From positions 1 to 56,603 of the forward strand of contig CAZTOA010000002.1 of the NCBI GenBank assembly GCA_964614975.1: a stretch of 56,603 bases of DNA, in the 5' to 3' direction. The position numbers and the translations under genes were made by a program. Source of the stretch: an uncultured Gammaproteobacteria bacterium. Its GTDB lineage: Bacteria > Patescibacteriota > Microgenomatia > UBA1406 > HO2-37-13b. Positions 5,158 to 40,653 of the stretch are shown here, piece by piece (the stretch's first letter is position 1; the number at the start of each line of letters is the position of its first letter). Under the pieces are notes generated by a model. The model saw only the letters and a program-made list of their open reading frames with translations. It had not been told where the DNA came from and ran no database searches.

Positions 5158-5572
5158 ACCAGGTGATGATCTGAGCTGAAAATGTGTAAACGTTAAAGAA
5201 CATCAATGTAAGTAGGAGCTGAATGAGCGACACATAAAAGAGATTGTACCAACCCTTTTTCATCCAAAGAGATAATGGCTTAAATGAGATGATAAGAACC
5301 ACAGAACAAAGCAATAGAACAGCCTGAAGTAGATAATGGTTTAGCTTAAAAATTTGGTCTTCTTCACCAAGGATAAAATCCGTTGCACCACTAAATAGGG
5401 GGAGAATGGTAGCGAATCCAATGATTAGTGCGATCAGAAATATTACATACGGAATGATCTCTGTGACAAAACGCCTCACCGACTTTGGAACATGGGGAAA
5501 GGCTTTATGGACTGTGCCAATAATCTCCTCTATTTGTTCGAATCGCTTTAAATCGAGTACGCCCATCAACAT
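5123..5572 (-). CDS. Small integral membrane protein, unknown function
   Basis: 149 aa with several hydrophobic helices. Overlaps both neighbours (7 nt and 35 nt), consistent with operon packing. Confidence 0.45.
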   Translation of the reverse strand: MLMGVLDLKRFEQIEEIIGTVHKAFPHVPKSVRRFVTEIIPYVIFLIALIIGFATILPLFSGATDFILGEEDQIFKLNHYLLQAVLLLCSVVLIISFKPLSLWMKKGWYNLFYVSLIQLLLTLMFFNVYTFSAQIITWYVLFEIKTEYT

Positions 5573-6669
5573 ATATAGTATTCTCCCAACGTGTCTTTTG
5601 CAATGTGGCCTTTTATTTCGAGCTCTAAAAGTCGATTAAGAATGGCAGACATTGGAATTTTTAATTCTTCAGCAATTGTATCCGGATTAGCTATTTCTTG
5701 CCTAATAAGAGCCATAAGTTCTATTTCTTCTTCAGAAAGGTTCAGAGTCATGTCGGGGGGAAGTGGAGGGGGTTTTAAGTTCAAATGTTCAAAAATATCA
5801 TCGGGCGAAAAGACAAAAACGCCTCCATTTTGCATAAGATGTGAAAAAGTATAGCCATAGGTTGCAGTTAGATTATAAGGTGGCAGAAAGATTGATTTAC
5901 CTTGGTCGCCGGCGTGTCTCGCTGTAATCAGAGTGCCTGATTTGCTTGTTCCTTCAATAATAAGAACGCCGTCAGAAAGTGCTGAAATAAGACGATTACG
6001 AGTTACAAATAGTCCTTTTATTACTTTCTGATCTGGTGGAAATTCACTCAGAATTGCACCGCCTTCGTTTAGAATGCGGTTGTAAAGCTTAGAGTTTGAT
6101 GGCGGAGACACAATATTAACGCCACAACCAAGAATAGCTAGTGTTTTTGTCTTAAATTTGAGCGCTGTCTCGTGAGCTAGGGAATCTATGCCAGAGGCCA
6201 TTCCCGAAATGATAGTTATTCCAGCTGAGGCAAGGCGGGAAGTGAAGAAATTTGTAAGGTATCTACCATAGGGTGTGCAATTTCTACTGCCGACAACGGC
6301 GATGGCGGGTGTTTCTTCGTCAGTGACAATGGAGGCATCGCCCTTAATGTAGAGGCATAGTGGTTTTACGGCTATATTGCGAATCTTATTAGGGTATTGG
6401 GGGAGGTCAGGAGTTAAAACTTGTATATCTTTTTTTAACAGGCTTTTTAGAATGCTATAGGGGCTTTCTTGTGAACGAATTTCCAATAGATTTTTTAGTG
6501 TTTCACCTGGAATAAGTTGAGCGAGTTGTTCCACGGGCGCATTATATGCGGACTGTATCGACCCAAATTTTTCAATTAGTTTTTTGACGGTAAGTGGGCC
6601 AATTCCAGAGACGTGAGAAAAGGCAACATAGTATTCAGTTTCGTCAGTGTAATGTAGATCTAGGTTCAT
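5566..6669 (-). CDS. dprA: DNA-processing protein DprA (Smf)
   Basis: VVGSRNCTPYG and SGMASGIDSLAHETAL Rossmann-like DprA motifs. N-terminal HhH-like region and C-terminal winged-helix-like tail. TAGACT box 6 nt upstream of the ATG. Confidence 0.9.
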   Translation of the reverse strand: MNLDLHYTDETEYYVAFSHVSGIGPLTVKKLIEKFGSIQSAYNAPVEQLAQLIPGETLKNLLEIRSQESPYSILKSLLKKDIQVLTPDLPQYPNKIRNIAVKPLCLYIKGDASIVTDEETPAIAVVGSRNCTPYGRYLTNFFTSRLASAGITIISGMASGIDSLAHETALKFKTKTLAILGCGVNIVSPPSNSKLYNRILNEGGAILSEFPPDQKVIKGLFVTRNRLISALSDGVLIIEGTSKSGTLITARHAGDQGKSIFLPPYNLTATYGYTFSHLMQNGGVFVFSPDDIFEHLNLKPPPLPPDMTLNLSEEEIELMALIRQEIANPDTIAEELKIPMSAILNRLLELEIKGHIAKDTLGEYYIC

Positions 6670-6790
6670 GTGGGTAGTCTATCAAGGAGAAATTAAAGAA
6701 TTATTATGCAAATAGGCCGACGGCCGGGGAATATACCCCCGGGCCGCCGGCACAATCCAAAACAACAATAAGCTCAATGAGAGTAGCCAC

Positions 6791-6827
6791 GGAGGTGGCC
6801 CTGGCGCTGGTAACCAGGGCCACCTCC
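6791..6827 (-). terminator. GC-rich hairpin downstream of cassette-1 ORFs (one of three 3' structures)
   Basis: Perfect 14-bp stem GGAGGTGGCCCTGG (6791-6804) / CCAGGGCCACCTCC (6814-6827). A second imperfect GC hairpin lies at 6715-6751 and an 8-bp stem at 6837-6844/6870-6877. The U-tract is weak and offset (TTATTGTTGTTTT ~19 nt further on). Confidence 0.5.
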
Positions 6828-6940
6828 GGGTAAAGACTACCCAAGTATCCGTGCAGCCACTCACAGACTTTGGGTAGCCGGGCGGCTACGATGCCACCGT
6901 CACCGTGCCGCGGTAGATGTCGAGTTGTTGTCGGCTCTGT

Positions 6941-7063
6941 TCAGAGACCGCTCTCGCCGACACCGCCGGATTGTTCTTCCGACGAGCCTTCAGCTTCGTC
7001 ATCATCCTCGTCGGGGAACCAGGTCGTGGGATCGTTCTTGTCGAATGGCTTCGGATCATCCAT
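6941..7063 (-). CDS. Cassette 1 ORF B: 40-aa acidic peptide MDDPKPFDKNDPTTWFPDEDDDEAEGSSEEQSGGVGESGL
   Basis: Hand translation. The ATG shares its A with the TGA of ORF A (TGATG at 7061-7065). GC-rich codons. Paralogous DPxTW(F)P-acidic motif with ORF A. Below the ORF-track length cutoff. Confidence 0.4.
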   Translation of the reverse strand: MDDPKPFDKNDPTTWFPDEDDDEAEGSSEEQSGGVGESGL

Positions 7064-7176
7064 CAGTCGTAGTCCTCGTTGGGCTCAGCTTCGGGCTCAT
7101 CTTCCTTCGGCCAGGTATCAGGATCCTCTGGATCAACGCCGTTGGTGGGATCCACACCTTGGGTCACTGCGGACAT
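7063..7176 (-). CDS. Cassette 1 ORF A: 37-aa acidic peptide MSAVTQGVDPTNGVDPEDPDTWPKEDEPEAEPNEDYD
   Basis: Hand translation. SD-like GGGAG lies 8 nt upstream of the ATG at 7176. About two thirds of codons end in G/C. Plus-strand ORFs over the same DNA are R/S/P-rich shadow-like. Confidence 0.45.
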   Translation of the reverse strand: MSAVTQGVDPTNGVDPEDPDTWPKEDEPEAEPNEDYD

Positions 7177-7385
7177 CGGAGATCTCCCTTCAATGAGTTG
7201 AGGGGCCTACCTCCCCAGGCCTGCATCCACAGGCTGGGGAGGCTTAAGCCCCAGAGGAGTGTGCTCCCCAGCACCGTTACTGGGGCTGGATAGGCTCTTG
7301 CCGTCAGCAACTCAAGAGCCCTTCCAACCAGGCACGATCTTTTTGAGACCGAGACTTGTTGGAAGAGCTCTTTTTCATTGAAAAC
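7177..7385 (-). promoter_or_regulatory. Long structured 5' leader of cassette 1 (candidate cis-regulatory RNA)
   Basis: Stems seen by eye: 7316-7328/7358-7370 (13 bp, one G-U), 7293-7300/7313-7320 (8 bp, overlaps the former so the two are mutually exclusive), and 7210-7223/7230-7242 (13 bp plus a bulge, containing GGGGAGG). CCCCAG/CTGGGG words are repeated. Confidence 0.35.
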
Positions 7386-7445
7386 TTATTATCTTCGGAA
7401 TATGAAAAAGTGCGTGGTACGTGGACAATACATGCTTGCGTACGG

Positions 7446-7489
7446 TACACCTACCTAAAAATAAATTGACAATATTATACACCTACCTA
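7446..7489. repeat. 12-nt direct repeat TACACCTACCTA x2 (7446-7457, 7478-7489)
   Basis: Exact copies 32 nt apart in the gap between the dockerin-protein gene and cassette 1. TTGACAA/TTGTCAA inverted words flank the second copy. Confidence 0.6.
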
Positions 7490-7515
7490 TATTTCAACTT
7501 GTCAAGAAAAGGGCG

Positions 7516-7541
7516 CGATCCACAAGAAGACCAGGTCTTAT
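7516..7541. repeat. 26-nt repeat copy A (CGATCCacAAGAAGACCAGGTCTTAT), partner at 24489-24514
   Basis: 24/26 identical to 24489-24514. Contains the palindrome AAGACC-A-GGTCTT. The TTA at its 3' end is the stop codon of the minus-strand gene in both copies. Confidence 0.6.
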
Positions 7542-8671
7542 TGTCCAAATACGCGGGTAAAGAGAAGAGACCAATCTGAGCTATCAACTTTTCTATCACA
7601 GTTAATGTCGGTTGCATCAAGATTATCCTGGCTAAATTGTGAGCGCACAAAAAAATTCACATCACGCGTATCAACGTTACCATCATTATTAAGATCGCCA
7701 CTTGATCGTACACATGTCGTGAGCGAAGTTGTTGGAGTAACGATACTAGGAATACTTACAGGTGTCGTTGGTATGCTTACCGGCGGTGTGATCCCAGCAC
7801 AACGTAATCTACCCGACATGTGGGCGCATATCGTTGGATTAAGCTGGGTATCATCAAATACCTCTAGTTTGCACGTATAAATTGAGCCTGTTTGCGCAGG
7901 GAATTGAATATCGGTTTGATCAGGTTGTGAATCTCTTGTGTCGTTAATTGGAGTTGCCGCTTTGATGCTCCCATCTTGCCCATAGACAGCAAGCCTGTAT
8001 AACAAGCTGTAACCGTCGATAAGGGCTTTATCCGCTGACGATAAGGCGCACTTCCACTGTCTTGTCTCAGAGCACGAAACTGGCGTTACACCCGCACTCA
8101 AACAGCGTCCTTCGCCATCTGTCACACAAAGAATAGGTTCAATATTGCGAATATTTATCGGACACCCCGGAAATACCGGGCCAGTCGGTGTTGGTACAAA
8201 ATTAAAAGGAGTTGGAGTTGCCTCAAATATAGTTGGTGAAGGAGAAGGTGGAGTTGTCGGTACGGCAGGTGTTGCCGTTGGCCCAGAACAGATTGGTGCA
8301 GTTCCTGTTACCTCGTTTACAGGACAATCAGCTCTTTTTGTGCCTCCACCGGTAACACCAATAACACGGCACGTATAAACTGTACCTGAGACTACAGGGG
8401 CTTCTACGCTCAGTTCATTAACGCCGCCAGCTTTTATGAGCTCATTTGTTGATTGATTAATTATTTGAACAATAAAATCATCATATTCGCCCGCTGGAAC
8501 AGAACATATTGCAGTCGGAGCTTCACACTTATTTGGTTCTGCAGCTCGATTACGTATATCAATTGGTCCACGCACAAGAAGAGCGCCGGCAGTTATGCCA
8601 CCGAGAATCAGTATCATTAAGGCAATCATCATTTTTGTGCGTAAGGCTTCTCTTGTCATAGCTGTGAACAT
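7538..8671 (-). CDS. Secreted Cys-containing protein with PT linkers and a C-terminal dockerin-like domain
   Basis: 377 aa with an N-terminal TM anchor. The C-terminus has two DxNxDGxVDxxD-type repeats (DLNNDGNVDTRD, DINCDRKVDSSD), typical of type I dockerin Ca-binding loops. Confidence 0.6.
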   Translation of the reverse strand: MFTAMTREALRTKMMIALMILILGGITAGALLVRGPIDIRNRAAEPNKCEAPTAICSVPAGEYDDFIVQIINQSTNELIKAGGVNELSVEAPVVSGTVYTCRVIGVTGGGTKRADCPVNEVTGTAPICSGPTATPAVPTTPPSPSPTIFEATPTPFNFVPTPTGPVFPGCPINIRNIEPILCVTDGEGRCLSAGVTPVSCSETRQWKCALSSADKALIDGYSLLYRLAVYGQDGSIKAATPINDTRDSQPDQTDIQFPAQTGSIYTCKLEVFDDTQLNPTICAHMSGRLRCAGITPPVSIPTTPVSIPSIVTPTTSLTTCVRSSGDLNNDGNVDTRDVNFFVRSQFSQDNLDATDINCDRKVDSSDWSLLFTRVFGQ

Positions 8672-13780: not shown

Positions 13781-13846
13781 AGAGAGATTTTAGAGGGGAT
13801 TTGTTAAGGAATTCTTATAAAGAAGGGCTAGTGGATTAAGAGATGC

Positions 13847-13879
13847 GGGCGGAGCCGTGCGTTGTGCACGACTCCGCCC
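13847..13879 (-). terminator. GC-rich hairpin ending cassette 2
   Basis: GGGCGGAG (13847-13854) / CTCCGCCC (13872-13879), about 60 nt after the stop codon. Poor U-tract. Confidence 0.45.
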
Positions 13880-13940
13880 TCAATGATCCTACCACTCAGC
13901 GGTCTACATGGCACGAGGGCCATTTCGACCGCAGAAGCGG

Positions 13941-14147
13941 TTACGACACGATTTCAGCTCGTGTCAAGGTGGCGCGGATGCGCCCCTGGGCCTCCTCGCT
14001 GTTGAACGCCGCCATTCGTGGTCGCATCCCGTACCTCCGGGCTGCGACGACGTAGGCCGGGCGATACGCCGGAGGGGCGAATCGACGGACGTCATCGAGC
14101 GTACTGCTGGCGCTCCTTGGTGAACCACCGGTCGCTACTTGCTGCAT
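13941..14147 (-). CDS. Cassette 2 ORF: 68-aa basic protein MQQVATGGSPRSASSTLDDVRRFAPPAYRPAYVVAARRYGMRPRMAAFNSEEAQGRIRATLTRAEIVS
   Basis: AAGGAG (14157-14162) lies 9 nt upstream of the ATG at 14147. GC-rich codons. The ORF track extends it to 14240 through a leader hairpin (CCCCGAGTTGACTCGGGG), which I consider less likely. Confidence 0.45.
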   Translation of the reverse strand: MQQVATGGSPRSASSTLDDVRRFAPPAYRPAYVVAARRYGMRPRMAAFNSEEAQGRIRATLTRAEIVS

Positions 14148-14308
14148 GGGTATGGGCTCCTTCTTGCAGCTTGTGCTGATTGCTCGCATCAACATGTGAA
14201 TGTGCCATCCCCGAGTCAACTCGGGGTAGGGGCTGAGCATTCCCTTTCTAGCAACAAAATAAGGCGATTAGCCCCACTTATTACCAAAAAGCATGCGCTC
14301 AACCCCTT

Positions 14309-18635: not shown

Positions 18636-18902
18636 ATGTCGACTTTGTCAGTGCTTGCGACGATTCTGCTGCAGGAAGATGAGATCATCCAACAGCCCAA
18701 TCCCGTCTTGGAGTTCATCCAGGGCAACCTGATTTGGGGAGTCTTGTTGCTCGTCCTCATTGTTGCGGTCGTGGTCTTGTTCCGGCTCAGGAAGACTTCT
18801 CTTGGACACTGCAGCCTGTGTTCGGAGAAGGCTATCTACGTCATCGGGAACAAGCCGTACTGCTCCAATCATGGACGGGAGCTGATCCGCAACGTGAGTT
18901 GA
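18636..18902 (+). CDS. Cassette 3 ORF: 88-aa membrane protein with C-terminal zinc-ribbon-like CxxC...CxxH
   Basis: AGGAGG (18624-18629) lies 6 nt upstream of the ATG. TM helix WGVLLLVLIVAVVVLF. HCSLC...YCSNH motif. The AT-rich 5' extension in the ORF track (from 18462) is probably non-coding. Confidence 0.5.
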   Translation: MSTLSVLATILLQEDEIIQQPNPVLEFIQGNLIWGVLLLVLIVAVVVLFRLRKTSLGHCSLCSEKAIYVIGNKPYCSNHGRELIRNVS

Positions 18903-18928
18903 TTGACGGCGAAGCCGTGAAGGGTGTA

Positions 18929-18957
18929 GTGCGCCCCGGCGATTTGTCGGGGCGCAC
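18929..18957 (+). terminator. GC-rich hairpin ending cassette 3 (also directly downstream of convergent rpiB)
   Basis: GTGCGCCCCG/CGGGGCGCAC 10-bp stem. Sits between the cassette stop (18902) and the rpiB stop (18973). Confidence 0.55.
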
Positions 18958-20439: not shown

Positions 20440-20457
20440 ATTTACTGCTTAAGGTGG

Positions 20458-20473
20458 TACCTGCCCTCAGGTA
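20458..20473. promoter_or_regulatory. Palindrome TACCTG-N4-CAGGTA just downstream of the 4a promoter (operator or 5' stem-loop)
   Basis: Perfect 6-bp arms at about +12 to +27 relative to the predicted start. Same motif at 20748-20765 and a related one at 40008-40021. Confidence 0.45.
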
Positions 20474-20505
20474 TATAGCTAGTTTCGTTCAAAGGAAACT
20501 CCGCT

Positions 20506-20628
20506 ATGCACATGAACACGCCGACCCCACAGCCGCAGACTAACTGCGGTGCTTGCGGAACTGTCTCGCCGGGCTCACTCAGCAAGTGTCCGTCTTGCGG
20601 TTCATCGAACGTCCGCGTCAAGAAGTAG
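20506..20628 (+). CDS. Cassette 4a ORF: 40-aa zinc-ribbon peptide MHMNTPTPQPQTNCGACGTVSPGSLSKCPSCGSSNVRVKK
   Basis: Hand translation. CxxC-N11-CxxC. Weak SD (AAGGA) 9 nt upstream. Below the ORF-track cutoff. Confidence 0.45.
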   Translation: MHMNTPTPQPQTNCGACGTVSPGSLSKCPSCGSSNVRVKK

Positions 20629-20648
20629 CGACTCCGGTCGCTGCACAG

Positions 20649-20681
20649 CCCGCCCTCCCGACATGTGTCGGGAGGAGCGGG
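20649..20681 (+). terminator. GC-rich hairpin ending cassette 4a
   Basis: CCCGCCCTCCCGAC / GTCGGGAGGAGCGGG (one bulge) followed by TTT. A smaller AGCGAC/GTCGCT stem overlaps the stop codon. Confidence 0.5.
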
Positions 20682-20704
20682 TTTCATCCCAACTCTTCCC
20701 AAAT

Positions 20705-20732
20705 TTGACTTCTAATACAAAAAGCCTATAAT
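20705..20732 (+). promoter_or_regulatory. Promoter of cassette 4b (TTGACT-16-TATAAT), duplicate of the 4a promoter
   Basis: AAAyTTGACTTCT...AAAAGCCTATAATA is shared with 20409-20440. Confidence 0.6.
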
Positions 20733-20747
20733 AATACCAGCATTGTC

Positions 20748-20765
20748 GTACCTGCATTCAGGTAC
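20748..20765. promoter_or_regulatory. Palindrome GTACCTG-N4-CAGGTAC downstream of the 4b promoter
   Basis: Perfect 7-bp arms. Same position relative to the -10 box as in 4a. Confidence 0.45.
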
Positions 20766-20794
20766 ACGCTCATTTCGTTATTGTGGAGGTTCTC

Positions 20795-21019
20795 ATGCCT
20801 GGCTGCTCTTTCCCGTCTCGTTGGACAGTGTTCGACCCAAAGCCGCTCGCCATTGGGCCCGGGGAGCCGATCCCACGGGCAGCGGCGCCTGTCGAGCCGT
20901 CGAAGACAGTGACGATCAAGTGTCCCAATCCGGAGTGCCCTTCGGAGTATTACATCGCACCGCCCAACGGGCGCTGTGATGCATGCGATACGATCATACC
21001 GGGCACTGGTGCGGGGTGA
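20795..21019 (+). CDS. Cassette 4b ORF: 74-aa zinc-ribbon protein (CPNPEC...CDAC)
   Basis: GGAGG (20784-20788) lies 6 nt upstream of the ATG at 20795. GC-rich codons. The ORF-track version starts 4 codons earlier at a GTG inside the SD. Confidence 0.5.
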   Translation: MPGCSFPSRWTVFDPKPLAIGPGEPIPRAAAPVEPSKTVTIKCPNPECPSEYYIAPPNGRCDACDTIIPGTGAG

Positions 21020-21054
21020 AGATGACGTGACCGTCGTGTGATCCTCACGCAAGA

Positions 21055-21081
21055 CCCCCGGCGGCATCGCGCCGCCGGGGG
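21055..21081 (+). terminator. GC-rich hairpin ending cassette 4b (adjacent to the convergent ychF stop)
   Basis: CCCCCGGCGGC / GCCGCCGGGGG perfect 11-bp stem with loop ATCGC. Confidence 0.6.
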
Positions 21082-21093
21082 CTTATTAACTTT

Positions 21094-22185
21094 CTAAGCA
21101 GATACTTTGAAGTCAACTACGTCACCATCTTTCATCATGTAATCTTTTCCACCCAATGTTACTTTTCCAGCTTCACGTGCTTTTACCCACCCCCCAAATT
21201 CAACGAATGTTTGATACTGTGTAATTTCAGCCTTAATAAAATGCTTTTCAAAGTCTGTATGAATTACTCCTGCCGCCTGAGGGGCGAGCGTGCCTTTCAG
21301 AATTGTCCATGCGCGAGCCTCAATTTTTCCGGCAGTTAAGAAGGAAATCAGCCCAAGCATATCATAAGCTTCTTTTACAAGTCTATCGAGCCCAGACTTT
21401 TCTAAATTATATGTTGCGAGATATTCAACTTGCTCTTCAGGTTCAAGCACAGATAATTCCTGTTCAAGCTTCGCACAAAGGTACAAGTAAGGATTTTTAG
21501 ATTTTTCTAATGAATTGAGTAAATTATTAATTTTTTCCTTCGTGCCTTCAGGATCCATAAGCTGAGGCTCTGAGACATTAAAAAGAAAAAGTACAGGTTT
21601 TAACGATAAAAGATTAAATTGCTTGAGATGTTCAAGTTGATCCTCTGTGAGTTCAAGATCACGAGCGGATTGTCCACGATTTAATTTTTCTTTAACAAAA
21701 AGCATAGTTTCATATGCGGCTTTTTCTTCTTTTGAAGCATTTGATTTTGGCTCGCGCTGTTTATCGAGAGTGGAGAGATCGGCAAGGATAAGCTCTGTTT
21801 CAATAGTTGCAATATCTTGTTCGGGATTTGCTACTTCATCCACATGAGTAATATTTTTGTCTTCAAAAAGCCTAACAACATGAACGACTAATGATGTTTC
21901 TCGAATATGGGAGAGAAATTTGTTTCCTAATCCAGCCCCTTCTGAAGCCCCGCGTACTAATCCGGCGATATCATAAAATTCTACAGCTGCTGGAACTATT
22001 TTTTCTGTTTCTACAACTTTCGCAAGTTTTGTAAGTCGTTCGTCTGGGACTTCGATAATGCCGACATTTGGTTCAATGGTGCAAAATGGATAATTTGCCA
22101 CATCGGCTACCTGCTTTTTTAAAAGTGCATTAAAAAGCGTTGACTTTCCTACATTCGGGAGACCGACAATTCCTACTTTTAGCAT
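21094..22185 (-). CDS. ychF: Ribosome-binding ATPase YchF
   Basis: GIVGLPNVGKSTLFNAL P-loop and the C-terminal TGS-like DGDVVDFK. TATACT (22192-22197) is 6 nt upstream of the ATG. Confidence 0.95.
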   Translation of the reverse strand: MLKVGIVGLPNVGKSTLFNALLKKQVADVANYPFCTIEPNVGIIEVPDERLTKLAKVVETEKIVPAAVEFYDIAGLVRGASEGAGLGNKFLSHIRETSLVVHVVRLFEDKNITHVDEVANPEQDIATIETELILADLSTLDKQREPKSNASKEEKAAYETMLFVKEKLNRGQSARDLELTEDQLEHLKQFNLLSLKPVLFLFNVSEPQLMDPEGTKEKINNLLNSLEKSKNPYLYLCAKLEQELSVLEPEEQVEYLATYNLEKSGLDRLVKEAYDMLGLISFLTAGKIEARAWTILKGTLAPQAAGVIHTDFEKHFIKAEITQYQTFVEFGGWVKAREAGKVTLGGKDYMMKDGDVVDFKVSA

Positions 22186-22302: not shown

Positions 22303-22518
22303 ATGTACGGAGTGTATGCGGGTATCCAATATCTTGTCACCGTGAAGGACGGCAAACGATACATCGGCATCCAAGACATGAACTTCGTCACCAAGCTTGT
22401 CGCCGCCGGCATCGATGTGACGGTGCTGGACGACATTGGCGATCAGCAACCTGACGACGTTGTTCAGGGGTTGCTCGAAAGCCTGCTTGCGGCCTCGACA
22501 AAGGCCAGTCCGGACTGA
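22303..22518 (+). CDS. Cassette 5 ORF: 71-aa protein MYGVYAGIQYLVTVKDGKRYIGIQDMNFVTKLVAAGIDVTVLDDIGDQQPDDVVQGLLESLLAASTKASPD
   Basis: AAGGAG (22292-22297) lies 5 nt upstream of the ATG. Shares KDG(K/R)R.I and (L/F)DDIG(D/E)...DV...G(L/M) blocks with the cassette 6 ORF. Confidence 0.5.
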   Translation: MYGVYAGIQYLVTVKDGKRYIGIQDMNFVTKLVAAGIDVTVLDDIGDQQPDDVVQGLLESLLAASTKASPD

Positions 22519-22524
22519 CCGGAC

Positions 22525-22548
22525 AAATGCCGACCTCCCTCGGCATTT
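22525..22548 (+). terminator. Hairpin ending cassette 5
   Basis: AAATGCCGA/TCGGCATTT 9-bp stem. A GTCCGG/CCGGAC stem overlaps the stop codon. Confidence 0.5.
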
Positions 22549-22600
22549 CTCTTCATCTTCAGGTGTATAATTTATTCATTACAAGTTCATATAAATACGT

Positions 22601-34483: not shown

Positions 34484-34542
34484 ATTGCTTGGAAATTATA
34501 TTCTTTGCTCCTGCACACATTTATATATATGCATAAGCAAAG

Positions 34543-34555
34543 AGGAGAGAGTTGA
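34543..34555. repeat. Left terminal inverted repeat AGGAGAGAGTTGA of cassette 7
   Basis: Perfect reverse complement of 35818-35830 (TCAACTCTCTCCT). 15/16 if extended by 3 nt. Confidence 0.7.
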
Positions 34556-34564
34556 GATCTGGCC

Positions 34565-34603
34565 CAGGGGGCCCGGGTGGCTCGCGCCAACCCGGACCCC
34601 CTG
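34565..34603 (-). terminator. GC-rich hairpin ending cassette 7
   Basis: CAGGGGGCCCGGGT / ACCCGGACCCCCTG (14 bp, one mismatch), 18 nt after the stop codon. Confidence 0.6.
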
Positions 34604-34620
34604 ACCAGCGCATCCGACGC

Positions 34621-35622
34621 TCAGCGGTTGAAGCTGAACGCGGGGAGGAAGCGGCGCCGATTGACGAAGGCCAGGCCGAAAGCCGCGCCGATCGCCATGA
34701 GCCAGCCGATGATGTCGGTGGCCGCGCCGGTGGTGGCACCCTTCGAGCCGGCCAACTTGAGGTCGAACGGCTGGCAGACGCCATCGACCCGGGTGAGCTT
34801 GGTGAAGCTGCCACCGGGAGTCGCGTCCAGGTCGCCGAGGTACATGGGCTTGCCGCCGGAAGTCGGGATGCGGAAGACCCGCCAATTCCCGCTGCTGATG
34901 GCCACCTTGATGCCCACGGCGAGGCCGTCGAAGCTGCGCTCCATGCCCAGCTTCTTGTCCTTGTTGAAGGCCGCCAGGGCCGCCTCGGCGGTCATGGCCT
35001 TGCCGTTCAGCACGAACAGGAGCTTGCCCGTGAACACGTCGTTGGTGTCACCCACGATGACCTCGGCGGTCTTGGTCGTGGTGATCGGCGACGTGGTGGC
35101 GAAGAGGCACATGGCGGTGCCGGTCGGGGCCGCGGCCGTGGTCGTCTTGGTCGTGCCGGTCTTGGCCTTGGCCGTGGTCGTGCCGCAATAGCCACCGAAG
35201 GTGTTCGACTGACCGCCGACGACTGTGAGGAACGTCGGGATGACCTTGACGTTCGTGCCGTTGAAGAGCACGACGACGTAGTCACCCTCGTCGACCCCGC
35301 CGCCACCGACGGTCGTGCCGCCCTTGACGGTGTCGACCACGGTGGTGCGGAGCTGGTAGACGTTGGCCACGCCGGCCTCGTTGGTGCCGGTGATGACCTT
35401 GCCGTTCTTGACGGCCCAGCCCGGGGCATCGGCGTAGAAGAACTTGGCCCAGGTCTGGCCGGAGCCCTCGGAGGGCTGGCACAGCTCCAGGCTGACGTTG
35501 CCCTGGCCGCCCATGGTGGACGGCGAGGCGTTGGCGGTGCCGGCGAAGCCGGCGAGCATGGAGGCCACCAGGACGGCGGCCAGGCCGAAGGACGTGACGA
35601 TGCGATTGAAGCGGGTGGACAT
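34621..35622 (-). CDS. Cassette 7 ORF: 333-aa secreted surface protein with C-terminal sorting-signal-like tail
   Basis: AAGGAG (35633-35638) lies 10 nt upstream of the ATG at 35622. Signal peptide MSTRFNRIVTSFGLAAVLVASMLAGFAGTANA. Two Cys-bracketed domains joined by TTAKAKTGTTKTTTAAAPTGT. The C-terminus is IIGWLMAIGAAFGLAFVNRRRF. Almost every codon ends in G/C. Confidence 0.6.
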   Translation of the reverse strand: MSTRFNRIVTSFGLAAVLVASMLAGFAGTANASPSTMGGQGNVSLELCQPSEGSGQTWAKFFYADAPGWAVKNGKVITGTNEAGVANVYQLRTTVVDTVKGGTTVGGGGVDEGDYVVVLFNGTNVKVIPTFLTVVGGQSNTFGGYCGTTTAKAKTGTTKTTTAAAPTGTAMCLFATTSPITTTKTAEVIVGDTNDVFTGKLLFVLNGKAMTAEAALAAFNKDKKLGMERSFDGLAVGIKVAISSGNWRVFRIPTSGGKPMYLGDLDATPGGSFTKLTRVDGVCQPFDLKLAGSKGATTGAATDIIGWLMAIGAAFGLAFVNRRRFLPAFSFNR

Positions 35623-35817
35623 GGCGTTCGAGCTCCTTTGATATGCGCTGGTGCGCTGGGTTGGTTCCTGCAAGGGAAATACTCGCGACAGCGTCACGAA
35701 TAGTCTTCCCCGCAGGAGAGGGAAGACATGCTGCAGATACGTCATTTGGCGTACCCGCAACATACCTTCCCCCTAAGCAGGGAAAAACATGCCCTTACAA
35801 AAGGCCCATATAATTAA

Positions 35818-40282: not shown

Positions 40283-40317
40283 AGTAGCTCGCGTTGTCCT
40301 ACCATAAGGAGTTTGCG

Positions 40318-40533
40318 GTGATACCCAACGACGTGGTGCAGTTTCCGTGGGATGGTCATACGTATGCCATCCCTTCCACACGGGTTGCCGATCAGGTGAT
40401 ATGCATGCCTGGCGGCACGAAGAAGCTCGTCGTTCGCAGCTGGAAGCCAAATGGCAGCCCGCATGTTGTCATCCAGCTCGACAGCTCAAACGCTCCCGAG
40501 AGCGTTTGCGTCTGGGCCACGCTCGTCAGCTAG
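40318..40533 (+). CDS. Cassette 8 ORF: 71-aa protein (V)IPNDVVQFPWDGHTYAIPSTRVADQVICMPGGTKKLVVRSWKPNGSPHVVIQLDSSNAPESVCVWATLVS
   Basis: AAGGAG (40306-40311) lies 6 nt upstream of the GTG at 40318. GC-rich codons. The ORF-track version starts at a TTG inside the leader. Confidence 0.5.
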   Translation: MIPNDVVQFPWDGHTYAIPSTRVADQVICMPGGTKKLVVRSWKPNGSPHVVIQLDSSNAPESVCVWATLVS

Positions 40534-40568
40534 TCTGACGCATACTGGCCGTGTAGGACGTATTCGCT

Positions 40569-40598
40569 GAAGCCGGCCCCCACTGCGGGGCCGGCTTC
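40569..40598 (+). terminator. GC-rich hairpin ending cassette 8
   Basis: GAAGCCGGCCCC / GGGGCCGGCTTC perfect 12-bp stem with loop CACTGC. Confidence 0.6.
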
Positions 40599-40653
40599 TC
40601 AATCCTTTCCTGGAAAAACGTAACCCTCCTTTTCTGCTATAATGTAAGTCTCA

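Follow-up and report, generated by a model that had tools for sequence, protein, structure and literature searches.

To our knowledge, few bacterial mRNAs are known in which the untranslated regions (UTRs) at the 5' and 3' ends pair with each other; these are hbs, icaR and RNAIII, all from Firmicutes and all found experimentally. Here we analyse a GC-rich island that lies directly upstream of dprA on the minus strand of a 56,603-nt stretch of DNA (contig CAZTOA010000002.1, assembly GCA_964614975.1; hereafter the window, WIN) from the genome, G000, of an uncultured bacterium of the Patescibacteriota. We propose that the island is a self-contained and genus-restricted unit, that is, a structured mRNA for two small peptides and not a leader of dprA or an antisense regulator, a reading to which we give somewhat better than an even chance. 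A predicted long-range duplex of about 25 bp, joining 5'UTR to 3'UTR, would close the RNA.

The adopted working model is the hbs mRNA of Bacillus subtilis, in which a 14-bp 5'/3'-UTR interaction modulates cleavage by RNase Y (Braun, Durand and Condon 2017, PMC5737220). In that message the interaction controls how RNase Y and RNase J1 gain access, and the mRNA is protected by initiating ribosomes (PMC5737220). The island RNA would resemble hbs in the pairing of its UTRs, and the genome encodes RNase III, RNase Y and RNase J; however, there is no sequence relationship between the two, the duplex is longer here (about 15-26 pairs versus 14), the RNA has about double the length and contains a coupled pair of micro open reading frames (micro-ORFs), and its products would be acidic disordered peptides whereas the hbs product is a basic DNA-binding protein. 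Staphylococcus aureus RNAIII is a 514-nt RNA with 14 hairpins, which encodes the 26-aa delta-hemolysin and joins its ends by a helix between A24-G30 and U452-458, and its non-coding structure regulates target mRNAs in trans (PMC7821165). The island RNA shares with it the large multi-hairpin build, the 5'/3' closure and a very small ORF content. In contrast to RNAIII, it has two ORFs and not one, no homology, no known link to quorum sensing or another regulatory circuit, and no trans target was found: with up to 3 mismatches allowed, nothing else in the genome is complementary to three conserved leader words of 17-19 nt.

For S. aureus icaR, a UCCCC motif in the 3'UTR is described as pairing with the ribosome-binding site to give an RNase III substrate (Ruiz de los Mozos 2013, as summarised in PMC7821165). 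Set against that summary, the island RNA likewise shows intramolecular 5'UTR/3'UTR pairing with a long double-stranded segment that RNase III could cut, but the partner of its 3' strand lies about 185 nt upstream of the ribosome site, which is predicted to be largely free. Riboswitches and leader-peptide attenuators resemble it as well in having a long, structured and conserved 5' leader with overlapping potential stems, although the island leader matches no Rfam family, has no conserved stem that sequesters the ribosome site, and leaves its alternative stem unpopulated in the predicted ensemble.

The predicted UTR duplex and the hairpins of leader and trailer

The window was compared with three other species of the genus (G001, G004 and G002) and with a metagenome contig (L037), the nearest relative, which serves as reference for all identity figures; in G002 the island is incomplete, since a contig end cuts through it. 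The predicted layout runs, 5' to 3', from a -10 box through a 290-nt structured leader, a ribosome site, ORF A, a TGATG junction and ORF B to three 3' hairpins (Table 1). From the position of the -10 box, which is invariant in the alignments of the relatives, the transcript probably starts near 7467. A predicted 771-nt RNA folds with -338 kcal/mol, corresponding to z = -11.1 against dinucleotide shuffles.

The minimum-energy fold of the window RNA joins a segment of the 5'UTR to one of the 3'UTR. The resulting duplex reaches -25.7 kcal/mol in the window (0/1000 shuffles reach this value), -23.5 kcal/mol in G001 (0/1000), -21.5 kcal/mol in L037 (8/1000) and -21.3 kcal/mol in G004 (4/1000), so that extended 5'UTR/3'UTR complementarity above chance is conserved in four genomes. 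The strands themselves vary from genome to genome, for instance GGCAATGAATGT/ACATTCATTGTC in G004 and GGCAATGAGTTT/AAACTCATTGCC in G001. When 5' and 3' strands were matched across species, the cognate pair of each genome was always the best, which argues that the two strands co-evolve. Besides, RNAalifold predicts the duplex independently, as helices 2 and 3 of an alignment of the leader and trailer skeleton. In full-length RNAs of the four genomes (709-860 nt), 15-26 duplex pairs are present in the minimum-energy fold and 16-25 are expected in the ensemble, the window having 26 and 25.0, respectively. These results come from tests at the level of segments, because folding the whole leader against the whole trailer with duplexfold is uninformative, the GC-rich trailer pairing with anything. 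A duplex of about 25 bp, which had escaped the sequence-only reading of this DNA, has comparative support as the predicted closure of the RNA.

The hairpins on either side of the coding region were followed in the same alignments. RNAalifold, run on the leader, the trailer and the joined skeleton, recovers L1, L2, T2 and T3. L1 (helix 1) is paired in 98% of cells and has 4 pairs changed on both sides, as in GGTAGGTG/CACGTACC, which becomes GGTAAGAA/TTCTTACC. Of the 23 pairs of L2 (helix 4), 8 are changed on both sides, with 96.7% of cells paired and a pairing probability of 1.0. Both T2 (helix 8) and T3 (helix 9) have 15 pairs; 6 are changed on both sides in T2, which is 100% paired and kept in G002 too, and 5 in T3. 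H5 and T1 are not recovered as such, and their description is based on pairing probabilities in the window and on reading the relatives, where H5 is kept with other arms (CCCCAAGGCTG/CAGCCTTGGGG in L037, CCCCCCGAG/CTCGGGGGG in G004) and T1 recurs at the same place (GCTGCCCAC/GTGGGGCAGC in G004, GCTACCT/AGGTAGC in G001). Over the whole skeleton alignment, 94.9% of cells are standard-paired versus 87.3% in shuffles, and 32 pairs are changed on both sides versus 15.3 expected, neither value being reached in 500 shuffles. As a control, sliding the partners by 1-3 columns lowered pairing to 36-47% and compensatory pairs to 3-4. The sequence-only reading had asked for homologous leaders and for covariation in them; homologues were found, and the hairpins keep pairing by compensatory changes. 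Altogether, this covariation, obtained in silico, argues that leader and trailer are truly structured and that their structures covary.

Conservation is not limited to paired bases. The L1 loop is invariant in the alignments, and the conserved unpaired elements are GNAAGCAU (the L1 loop) and GCACUUUUUCAUAUU; the word GCACTTTT(T/C)CATATT is near-invariant among four sequences.

Table 1. Features of the island and its borders, with their identity to the nearest relative, L037
Feature	Position in window	Strand	Identity to L037	Description
Dockerin-bearing surface protein gene	7538-8671	minus		one flank of the island
Spacer upstream of the -10 box			42%	55 nt
GC-rich island	6705-7480	minus-strand unit		~60% GC
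Putative -10 promoter box	7474-7481	minus	90% (together with the first 110 nt of the leader)	TGTATAAT in the window, extended TGGTATAAT in three relatives
Leader hairpin L1	7416-7455	minus		13 pairs, conserved apical loop G(C/A)AAGCAU
Single-stranded leader word	7405-7415	minus		ACGCACUUUUU, running on into CAUAUU; unpaired probability 0.76-1.0
5' strand of the long-range duplex	7375-7404	minus		5'UTR
Leader hairpin L2	7316-7370	minus	82%	outer 13-bp stem 7358-7370/7316-7328 and inner stem
Leader after L2			90%	60 nt
Alternative stem	7293-7320	minus		GGCUCUUG/CAAGAGCC, overlaps the base of L2, 8/8 pairs
Hairpin H5	7210-7242	minus	54% (together with the ribosome site)	13 pairs and one bulge, in a fast-evolving part of the leader; pairing probability ~1.0
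Shine-Dalgarno-like word	7184-7190	minus		AAGGGAG, 7 nt before the ORF A ATG
ORF A	7063-7176	minus	34%	37 aa, MSAVTQGVDPTNGVDPEDPDTWPKEDEPEAEPNEDYD, 35% Asp+Glu, core VDPEDPDTWP
ORF B	6941-7063	minus	N-terminal part 44%, C-terminal part 72%	40 aa, MDDPKPFDKNDPTTWFPDEDDDEAEGSSEEQSGGVGESGL, 35% Asp+Glu
Trailer hairpin T1	6835-6879	minus	74%	GGCUACCCAA/UUGGGUAGUC, pairing probability 0.83-1.0
Trailer hairpin T2	6791-6827	minus	90%	perfect 14-bp stem
3' strand of the long-range duplex	6752-6784	minus	86%	3'UTR, partner of 7375-7404
Hairpin T3	6716-6751	minus	92%	GC-rich, terminator-like, ends 7 nt before the dprA -10 box
Likely dprA -10 box	6703-6708	minus		CATAAT, invariant in 5/5 sequences
dprA	5566-6669	minus		ATG at 6669, other flank of the island

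Two putative coupled micro-ORFs and the proposed target of selection

All sequence features that the sequence-only reading had listed are present in the window, among them two acidic minus-strand ORFs that overlap at stop and start. The stop of ORF A and the start of ORF B share base 7063 in the TGATG overlap, which is found in the window, L037 and G001 (3/4 genomes); G004 has a 23-nt overlap in its place, and G002 an 8-nt gap. Each of the three relatives with a complete island has the two-ORF layout, and the truncated copy of G002 still has ORF B, so that by sequence the pair is conserved in the manner of translationally coupled genes. In 4/4 genomes AAGGAG or GGAGG stands 7-8 nt before the ORF A ATG, in a block that is otherwise among the least conserved of the leader. 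This site lies only in a 3-bp mini-hairpin and is weakly paired in the ensemble of the window RNA. Elsewhere in the genome Shine-Dalgarno words precede 3-7% of the long ORFs and are not enriched (7% versus 10% background); the retention of so rare a word before ORF A therefore points to translation. In agreement with this, the 16S rRNA of G004 ends in CACCUCCUUUCU, so the anti-Shine-Dalgarno sequence is intact in the genus; a 16S rRNA search in G000 and G001 found none. The 16S match in G004 (L050, G004:C1:57686-59606) spans 1921 nt versus a 1533-position model, with about 390 nt of insertions. Genome-wide, TATAAT or ATAAT words are 7-9-fold enriched within 22 nt before start codons, and together with the lack of Shine-Dalgarno enrichment this makes most genes seem leaderless or very short-leadered.

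Orthologues of ORF A are found in L037, G004, G001 and P0006, a metagenomic protein, and its DPEDPD is kept versus L037 despite 4 third-position changes. ORF B has a conserved C-terminal block, EGSSEEQSGGVGE, and in the window, L037, G004 and G002 it stops at the same place, behind G-S-[SD]-x-E-x-x-G-G-V-G-E; over 13 conserved codons it differs from L037 by 8 synonymous and 0 non-synonymous changes. The peptides vary at the N terminus and are conserved at the C terminus; those of L037 and G004 share L(K/R)YAPPA(I/T)GP(Y/W), which is absent from the window. The motif DP(D/T)TW, read earlier as the mark of tandem paralogues, does occur in both window peptides, but it fails as a family signature, both peptides of L037 being without DPxTW. 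AlphaFold gives ORF A one 3-residue helical turn and otherwise no secondary structure, and ORF B none at all, each with a predicted local distance difference test (pLDDT) score of 65, and neither peptide matches anything in Pfam, PHROGs, NCBIfam or PDB; both are orphan and acidic and are predicted to be disordered. The pair was also considered as a precursor of a ribosomally synthesised and post-translationally modified peptide and rejected: neither maturase nor transporter is among the neighbours, no family matches, and the variability of leader and core is reversed. Likewise, small ORFs inside the leader (MYCPRTTHFFIFRR, MKKSSSNK...) were discarded, as L037 and G001 retain neither their frames nor their stops.

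In the model that we favour, a host-type -10 promoter would drive an RNA of about 760 nt, from approximately 7467 to approximately 6712; this RNA would have hairpin L1 near its 5' end and several GC-rich hairpins besides, and its Shine-Dalgarno site would lie exposed. Its two coupled micro-ORFs would encode the acidic and intrinsically disordered peptides of 37 and 40 aa, ORF B being made by termination-reinitiation at TGATG, and the terminal hairpin T3 would abut the promoter of dprA itself. Pairing between the two duplex strands would enclose the coding region in a closed, nuclease-resistant fold, and by extrapolation from hbs the duplex and the 5' hairpin may set the lifetime and the output of the mRNA by limiting RNase Y, RNase J and RNase III. 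Selection would act chiefly on the RNA architecture; on the peptides it would act through the fact of translation (site, frames and junction), the acidic composition and short motifs (DPEDPD; GSSEEQSGGVGE).

Several points weigh against this model. The covariation rests on four full sequences, two of them close, so its statistics are thin, and the structure tested was derived from the same alignment. Read in one antisense frame, the third-position pattern of ORF B is nearly synonymous as well; because of this, the strand was chosen by the promoter, the ribosome site, the junction and the common stop, not by third positions alone. In sequence of 60% GC, chance alone keeps ORFs of about 40 codons open quite often, by our estimate in roughly three of ten cases. 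T3, which from its sequence may act as the terminator, is not called as an intrinsic (Rho-independent) terminator by a pattern scan, as no U-tract follows the hairpin (the window has the tail CUAUUUG, G004 has CAUUUCC and G001 CAUAUGC), so some read-through into dprA is possible. Finally, the flanks are far better conserved than the peptides, which suits an RNA with a function of its own at least equally well.

This last point leads to the alternative that survives best, namely that the RNA itself is the main product: a structured regulatory or scaffold RNA of about 760 nt, either of dual function like RNAIII or effectively non-coding with incidental or secondary ORFs. We consider this possible, if on balance unlikely. 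On the scale of neutral change versus L037, dprA differs at 48% of four-fold degenerate sites and at 42% of third codon positions, and its coding sequence is 90% identical over the first 69 nt. As the identities in Table 1 show, the untranslated flanks are about as tightly kept as the dprA coding sequence and most of the coding part of the unit is about neutral: the non-coding blocks are 82-92% identical, and ORF A and the N-terminal part of ORF B lie near the neutral level of about 50%. At the level of sequence, then, the usual pattern of conservation is clearly reversed, with UTRs that are held and peptides that drift almost neutrally. The low z-score of the fold, the conserved unpaired loop and word, and the precedent of RNAIII, an RNA whose 5' and 3' regions are also joined and which codes for a peptide of 26 aa (PMC7821165), speak for the same alternative. 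Against it, the conserved leader words have no complementary target in a 97%-complete genome, no Rfam family matches the RNA, and the Shine-Dalgarno word, the ATG, TGATG and the common stop are kept within an otherwise drifting region, the first of these pointing to translation by its rarity. In a more specific form, the unit would above all be a large structured RNA, new and specific to the lineage, about 760 nt long and with a 25-bp end-to-end helix, whose loop and word bind a protein or RNA partner and whose micro-ORFs are secondary, which we regard as unlikely.

Conversely, the peptides could be the point of the unit, either as decoys of the SSB C-terminal tip that compete for tip pockets or as single-stranded DNA mimics directed towards DprA or RecA; this we hold to be improbable. 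SSB of all five genomes checked ends in ...EKVDPDDIPF and VDPEDPDTWP occurs in ORF A; the last residues of ORF B are ...NDELPF in G001 and ...GEGPF in G004 and L037, and only 17/6355 ORFs of the genome end in PF. The peptides are also 35% acidic and predicted to be disordered, and the unit always stands beside dprA, where another genus (G009) has an 88-aa ORF that is 53% acidic. However, ORF B of the window ends in ...GESGL, that of G002 in ...GEQL and ORF A in ...NEDYD, so the PF end of an SSB tip is missing from these peptides. The resemblance to SSB is a motif of 4-6 residues in a biased composition, with no DNA-level similarity of the ORFs to the 3' end of ssb, and matches by motif only, in an axolotl protein and in lactobacillus mucus-binding proteins, show how easily chance produces it. 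The adjacency to dprA may merely mark a permissive intergenic site, since other genera have unrelated GC-rich genes there. As for the ssb loci themselves (L046, L044, L043, L042 and L045, from the genus and G009), their proteins close with EKVDPDDIPF or DVDPDDIPF, a version of the usual acidic tip that contains Pro, and the linker before the tip is strongly variable between species.

The sequence-only reading had taken the leader for a toggling riboswitch or attenuator and had proposed that read-through transcripts mask or process the dprA start, and both parts now look very unlikely. The two stems that share bases 7316-7320 do exist, pairing at 8/8 positions in the alternative stem and at 12/13 in the outer stem of L2, and the alternative stem retains its pairing potential in L037 through wobble pairs; however, in the predicted ensemble it has a probability of 0.0 versus 1.0 for L2. 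The hairpin at 7210-7242 is there as well, but the relatives do not retain the GGGGAGG that it was thought to bury (7210-7216), a word that is 34 nt away from the ATG on its 5' side, and no occlusion of the ribosome site is conserved. The repeated CCCCAG/CUGGGG words of the leader are present. Upstream of ORF A, no hairpin followed by a U-tract and no conserved terminator/antiterminator pair was seen. Rfam gave 0 matches over the whole window at the gathering score, and over 6500-7600 at E <=10 only chance-level ones, the best being the mir-7939 microRNA model with 22.7 bits versus a threshold of 75 (E = 0.06).

The downstream hairpins, including the perfect 14-bp stem, stand as T1, T2 and T3. 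The 10-nt word at 6834-6843, TGGGTAGTCT, is indeed exactly complementary to 6671-6680 in the window, and the missing U-tract after T3 would permit read-through. Yet 31/2000 shuffles (1.5%) produce a 10-nt complement to a 60-nt target around the dprA start, which is not beyond chance; in L037 the target is AAACTGCTCGC, with 4 mismatches and an unchanged T1, and in G004 and G001 it is unrelated. The word is the 3' arm of the conserved hairpin T1, and dprA has an invariant -10 box of its own, whose position agrees with the excess of TATAAT-like words that the genome as a whole shows 3-22 nt ahead of its start codons; these data do not support masking of the dprA start. Last, the island is hardly to be taken for a foreign GC-rich remnant or for a real gene on the plus strand (6870-7196 or 6925-7293), for although GC jumps abruptly from ~40% to ~60% at its edge and long frames are open on that strand, it is fixed at one site in the genus behind a host-type promoter, has no homologue elsewhere (word search, protein scan and family databases alike), and the plus-strand frames have no Pfam match, vary in extent, start and frame between genomes so that the plus-strand check yielded no consistent gene among the relatives, and cross the conserved palindromic hairpins.

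Distribution and neighbourhood of the island

The structured two-peptide mRNA that we favour would belong to a host genome of 1.01 Mb with 39.9% GC and 97% completeness. The neighbours of the island are dprA, a membrane protein and dockerin-bearing surface proteins. The order membrane protein, dprA, GC-rich island, dockerin gene is held in G001, G004 and G002, and the segment from the dockerin gene through the island to dprA is also present in L037. Searches of the whole genome find the island in single copy. A repeat element or a template/variable pair of the diversity-generating kind was ruled out on the same ground, self-BLAST against the window and nhmmer searches of leader and trailer against the genome giving a single copy. 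No tRNA or tmRNA matching the island was found by a scan for these.

Outside the locus, relatives are scarce. DNA searches of 41 relatives and of a 25-genome family gave matches confined to the genus, and DNA profiles of leader and trailer found nothing outside it in the 25 family genomes and at 30 dprA loci of family and order. With a protein profile of ORF A, 3 of the 223 genomes of the order (81 genera) matched, all from one genus. A scan of metagenome and genome collections for the conserved leader pattern yielded one new true relative, L037; two further matches, L038 and L039, were judged to be chance, and two others fell in genomes already in the data set. When the ORF A profile was run with HMMER against 1.84 billion representative proteins, this added one new orthologue, P0006, of 49 aa and from short metagenome contigs. 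The other matches of that scan, to repeat proteins, lactobacillus mucus-binding proteins and one axolotl protein, go no further than a DPxDPxTWP-like motif and were rejected as homologues, and word-index searches of proteins returned only self matches.

Three metagenomic proteins, P0009, P0010 and P0011, encoded on contigs of 1.2-2.5 kb, are small, secreted or membrane-anchored, and carry 4-9 tandem copies of (M/F)DPNDP(S/T)TW(P); this repeat word is nearly identical to FDKNDPTTWFP of ORF B, and the proteins have neither a family nor a name nor a usable context. In four other genera of the family (read over the 1.5 kb before dprA: L010 in G009, L014 in G010, L019 in G012 and L026 in G023), an island of 55-75% GC likewise lies directly upstream of dprA, with contents unrelated to those of the window island. 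At this site G009 has its 88-aa ORF behind AAGGAG, followed by 15-bp hairpins, G010 a 243-aa secreted protein, and G012 two paralogous ORFs of about 100 aa each. The site upstream of dprA thus looks like a hotspot of GC-rich, lineage-specific genes.

On the plus strand, 7466-7493 holds a promoter-like element, TTGACA-16-TATATT, with 11/12 matches, which overlaps the -10 box of the cassette on the other strand and is directed into the 3' end of the dockerin gene; its TTGACA is not kept in G004 and G001. The genome has 56 islands, each 250 nt or longer and with a GC content of 57% or above, summing to 32 kb. Those within the window lie at about 6701-7351, 13801-14251, 18751-18951, 20451-21101, 22351-22551, 34501-35751 and 40301-40651. 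At 34621-35763 on the minus strand, an ORF of 380 aa and about 65% GC has no Pfam match; hydrophobic segments stand at its N terminus and its C terminus, the latter with RRR behind it, and the body between them is rich in Thr, Gly and Ala.

Meaning for candidate-phyla-radiation genomes

Bacteria of the candidate phyla radiation, whose genomes are tiny, have hardly been studied at the level of RNA. In the island described here, 5'/3' pairing has comparative support in an uncultured lineage. Most genes of this organism have a -10 box right before the start and no Shine-Dalgarno word, whereas the cassette combines its 290-nt structured leader with a canonical Shine-Dalgarno site, which suggests two expression regimes within one 1-Mb genome. 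A more speculative extension is that the acidic peptides might act as SSB-tip decoys on the adjacent DprA pathway. If the RNA were the main product, the unit could belong to a wider class, the genome having 56 GC-rich islands, and units of this kind might make up an unrecognised layer of closed-loop RNAs in candidate-phyla-radiation bacteria, in which ordinary genes are close to leaderless and have no Shine-Dalgarno sites. For annotation, the locus indicates that the GC-rich "intergenic" islands of AT-rich genomes can hide micro-protein genes with functional UTRs.

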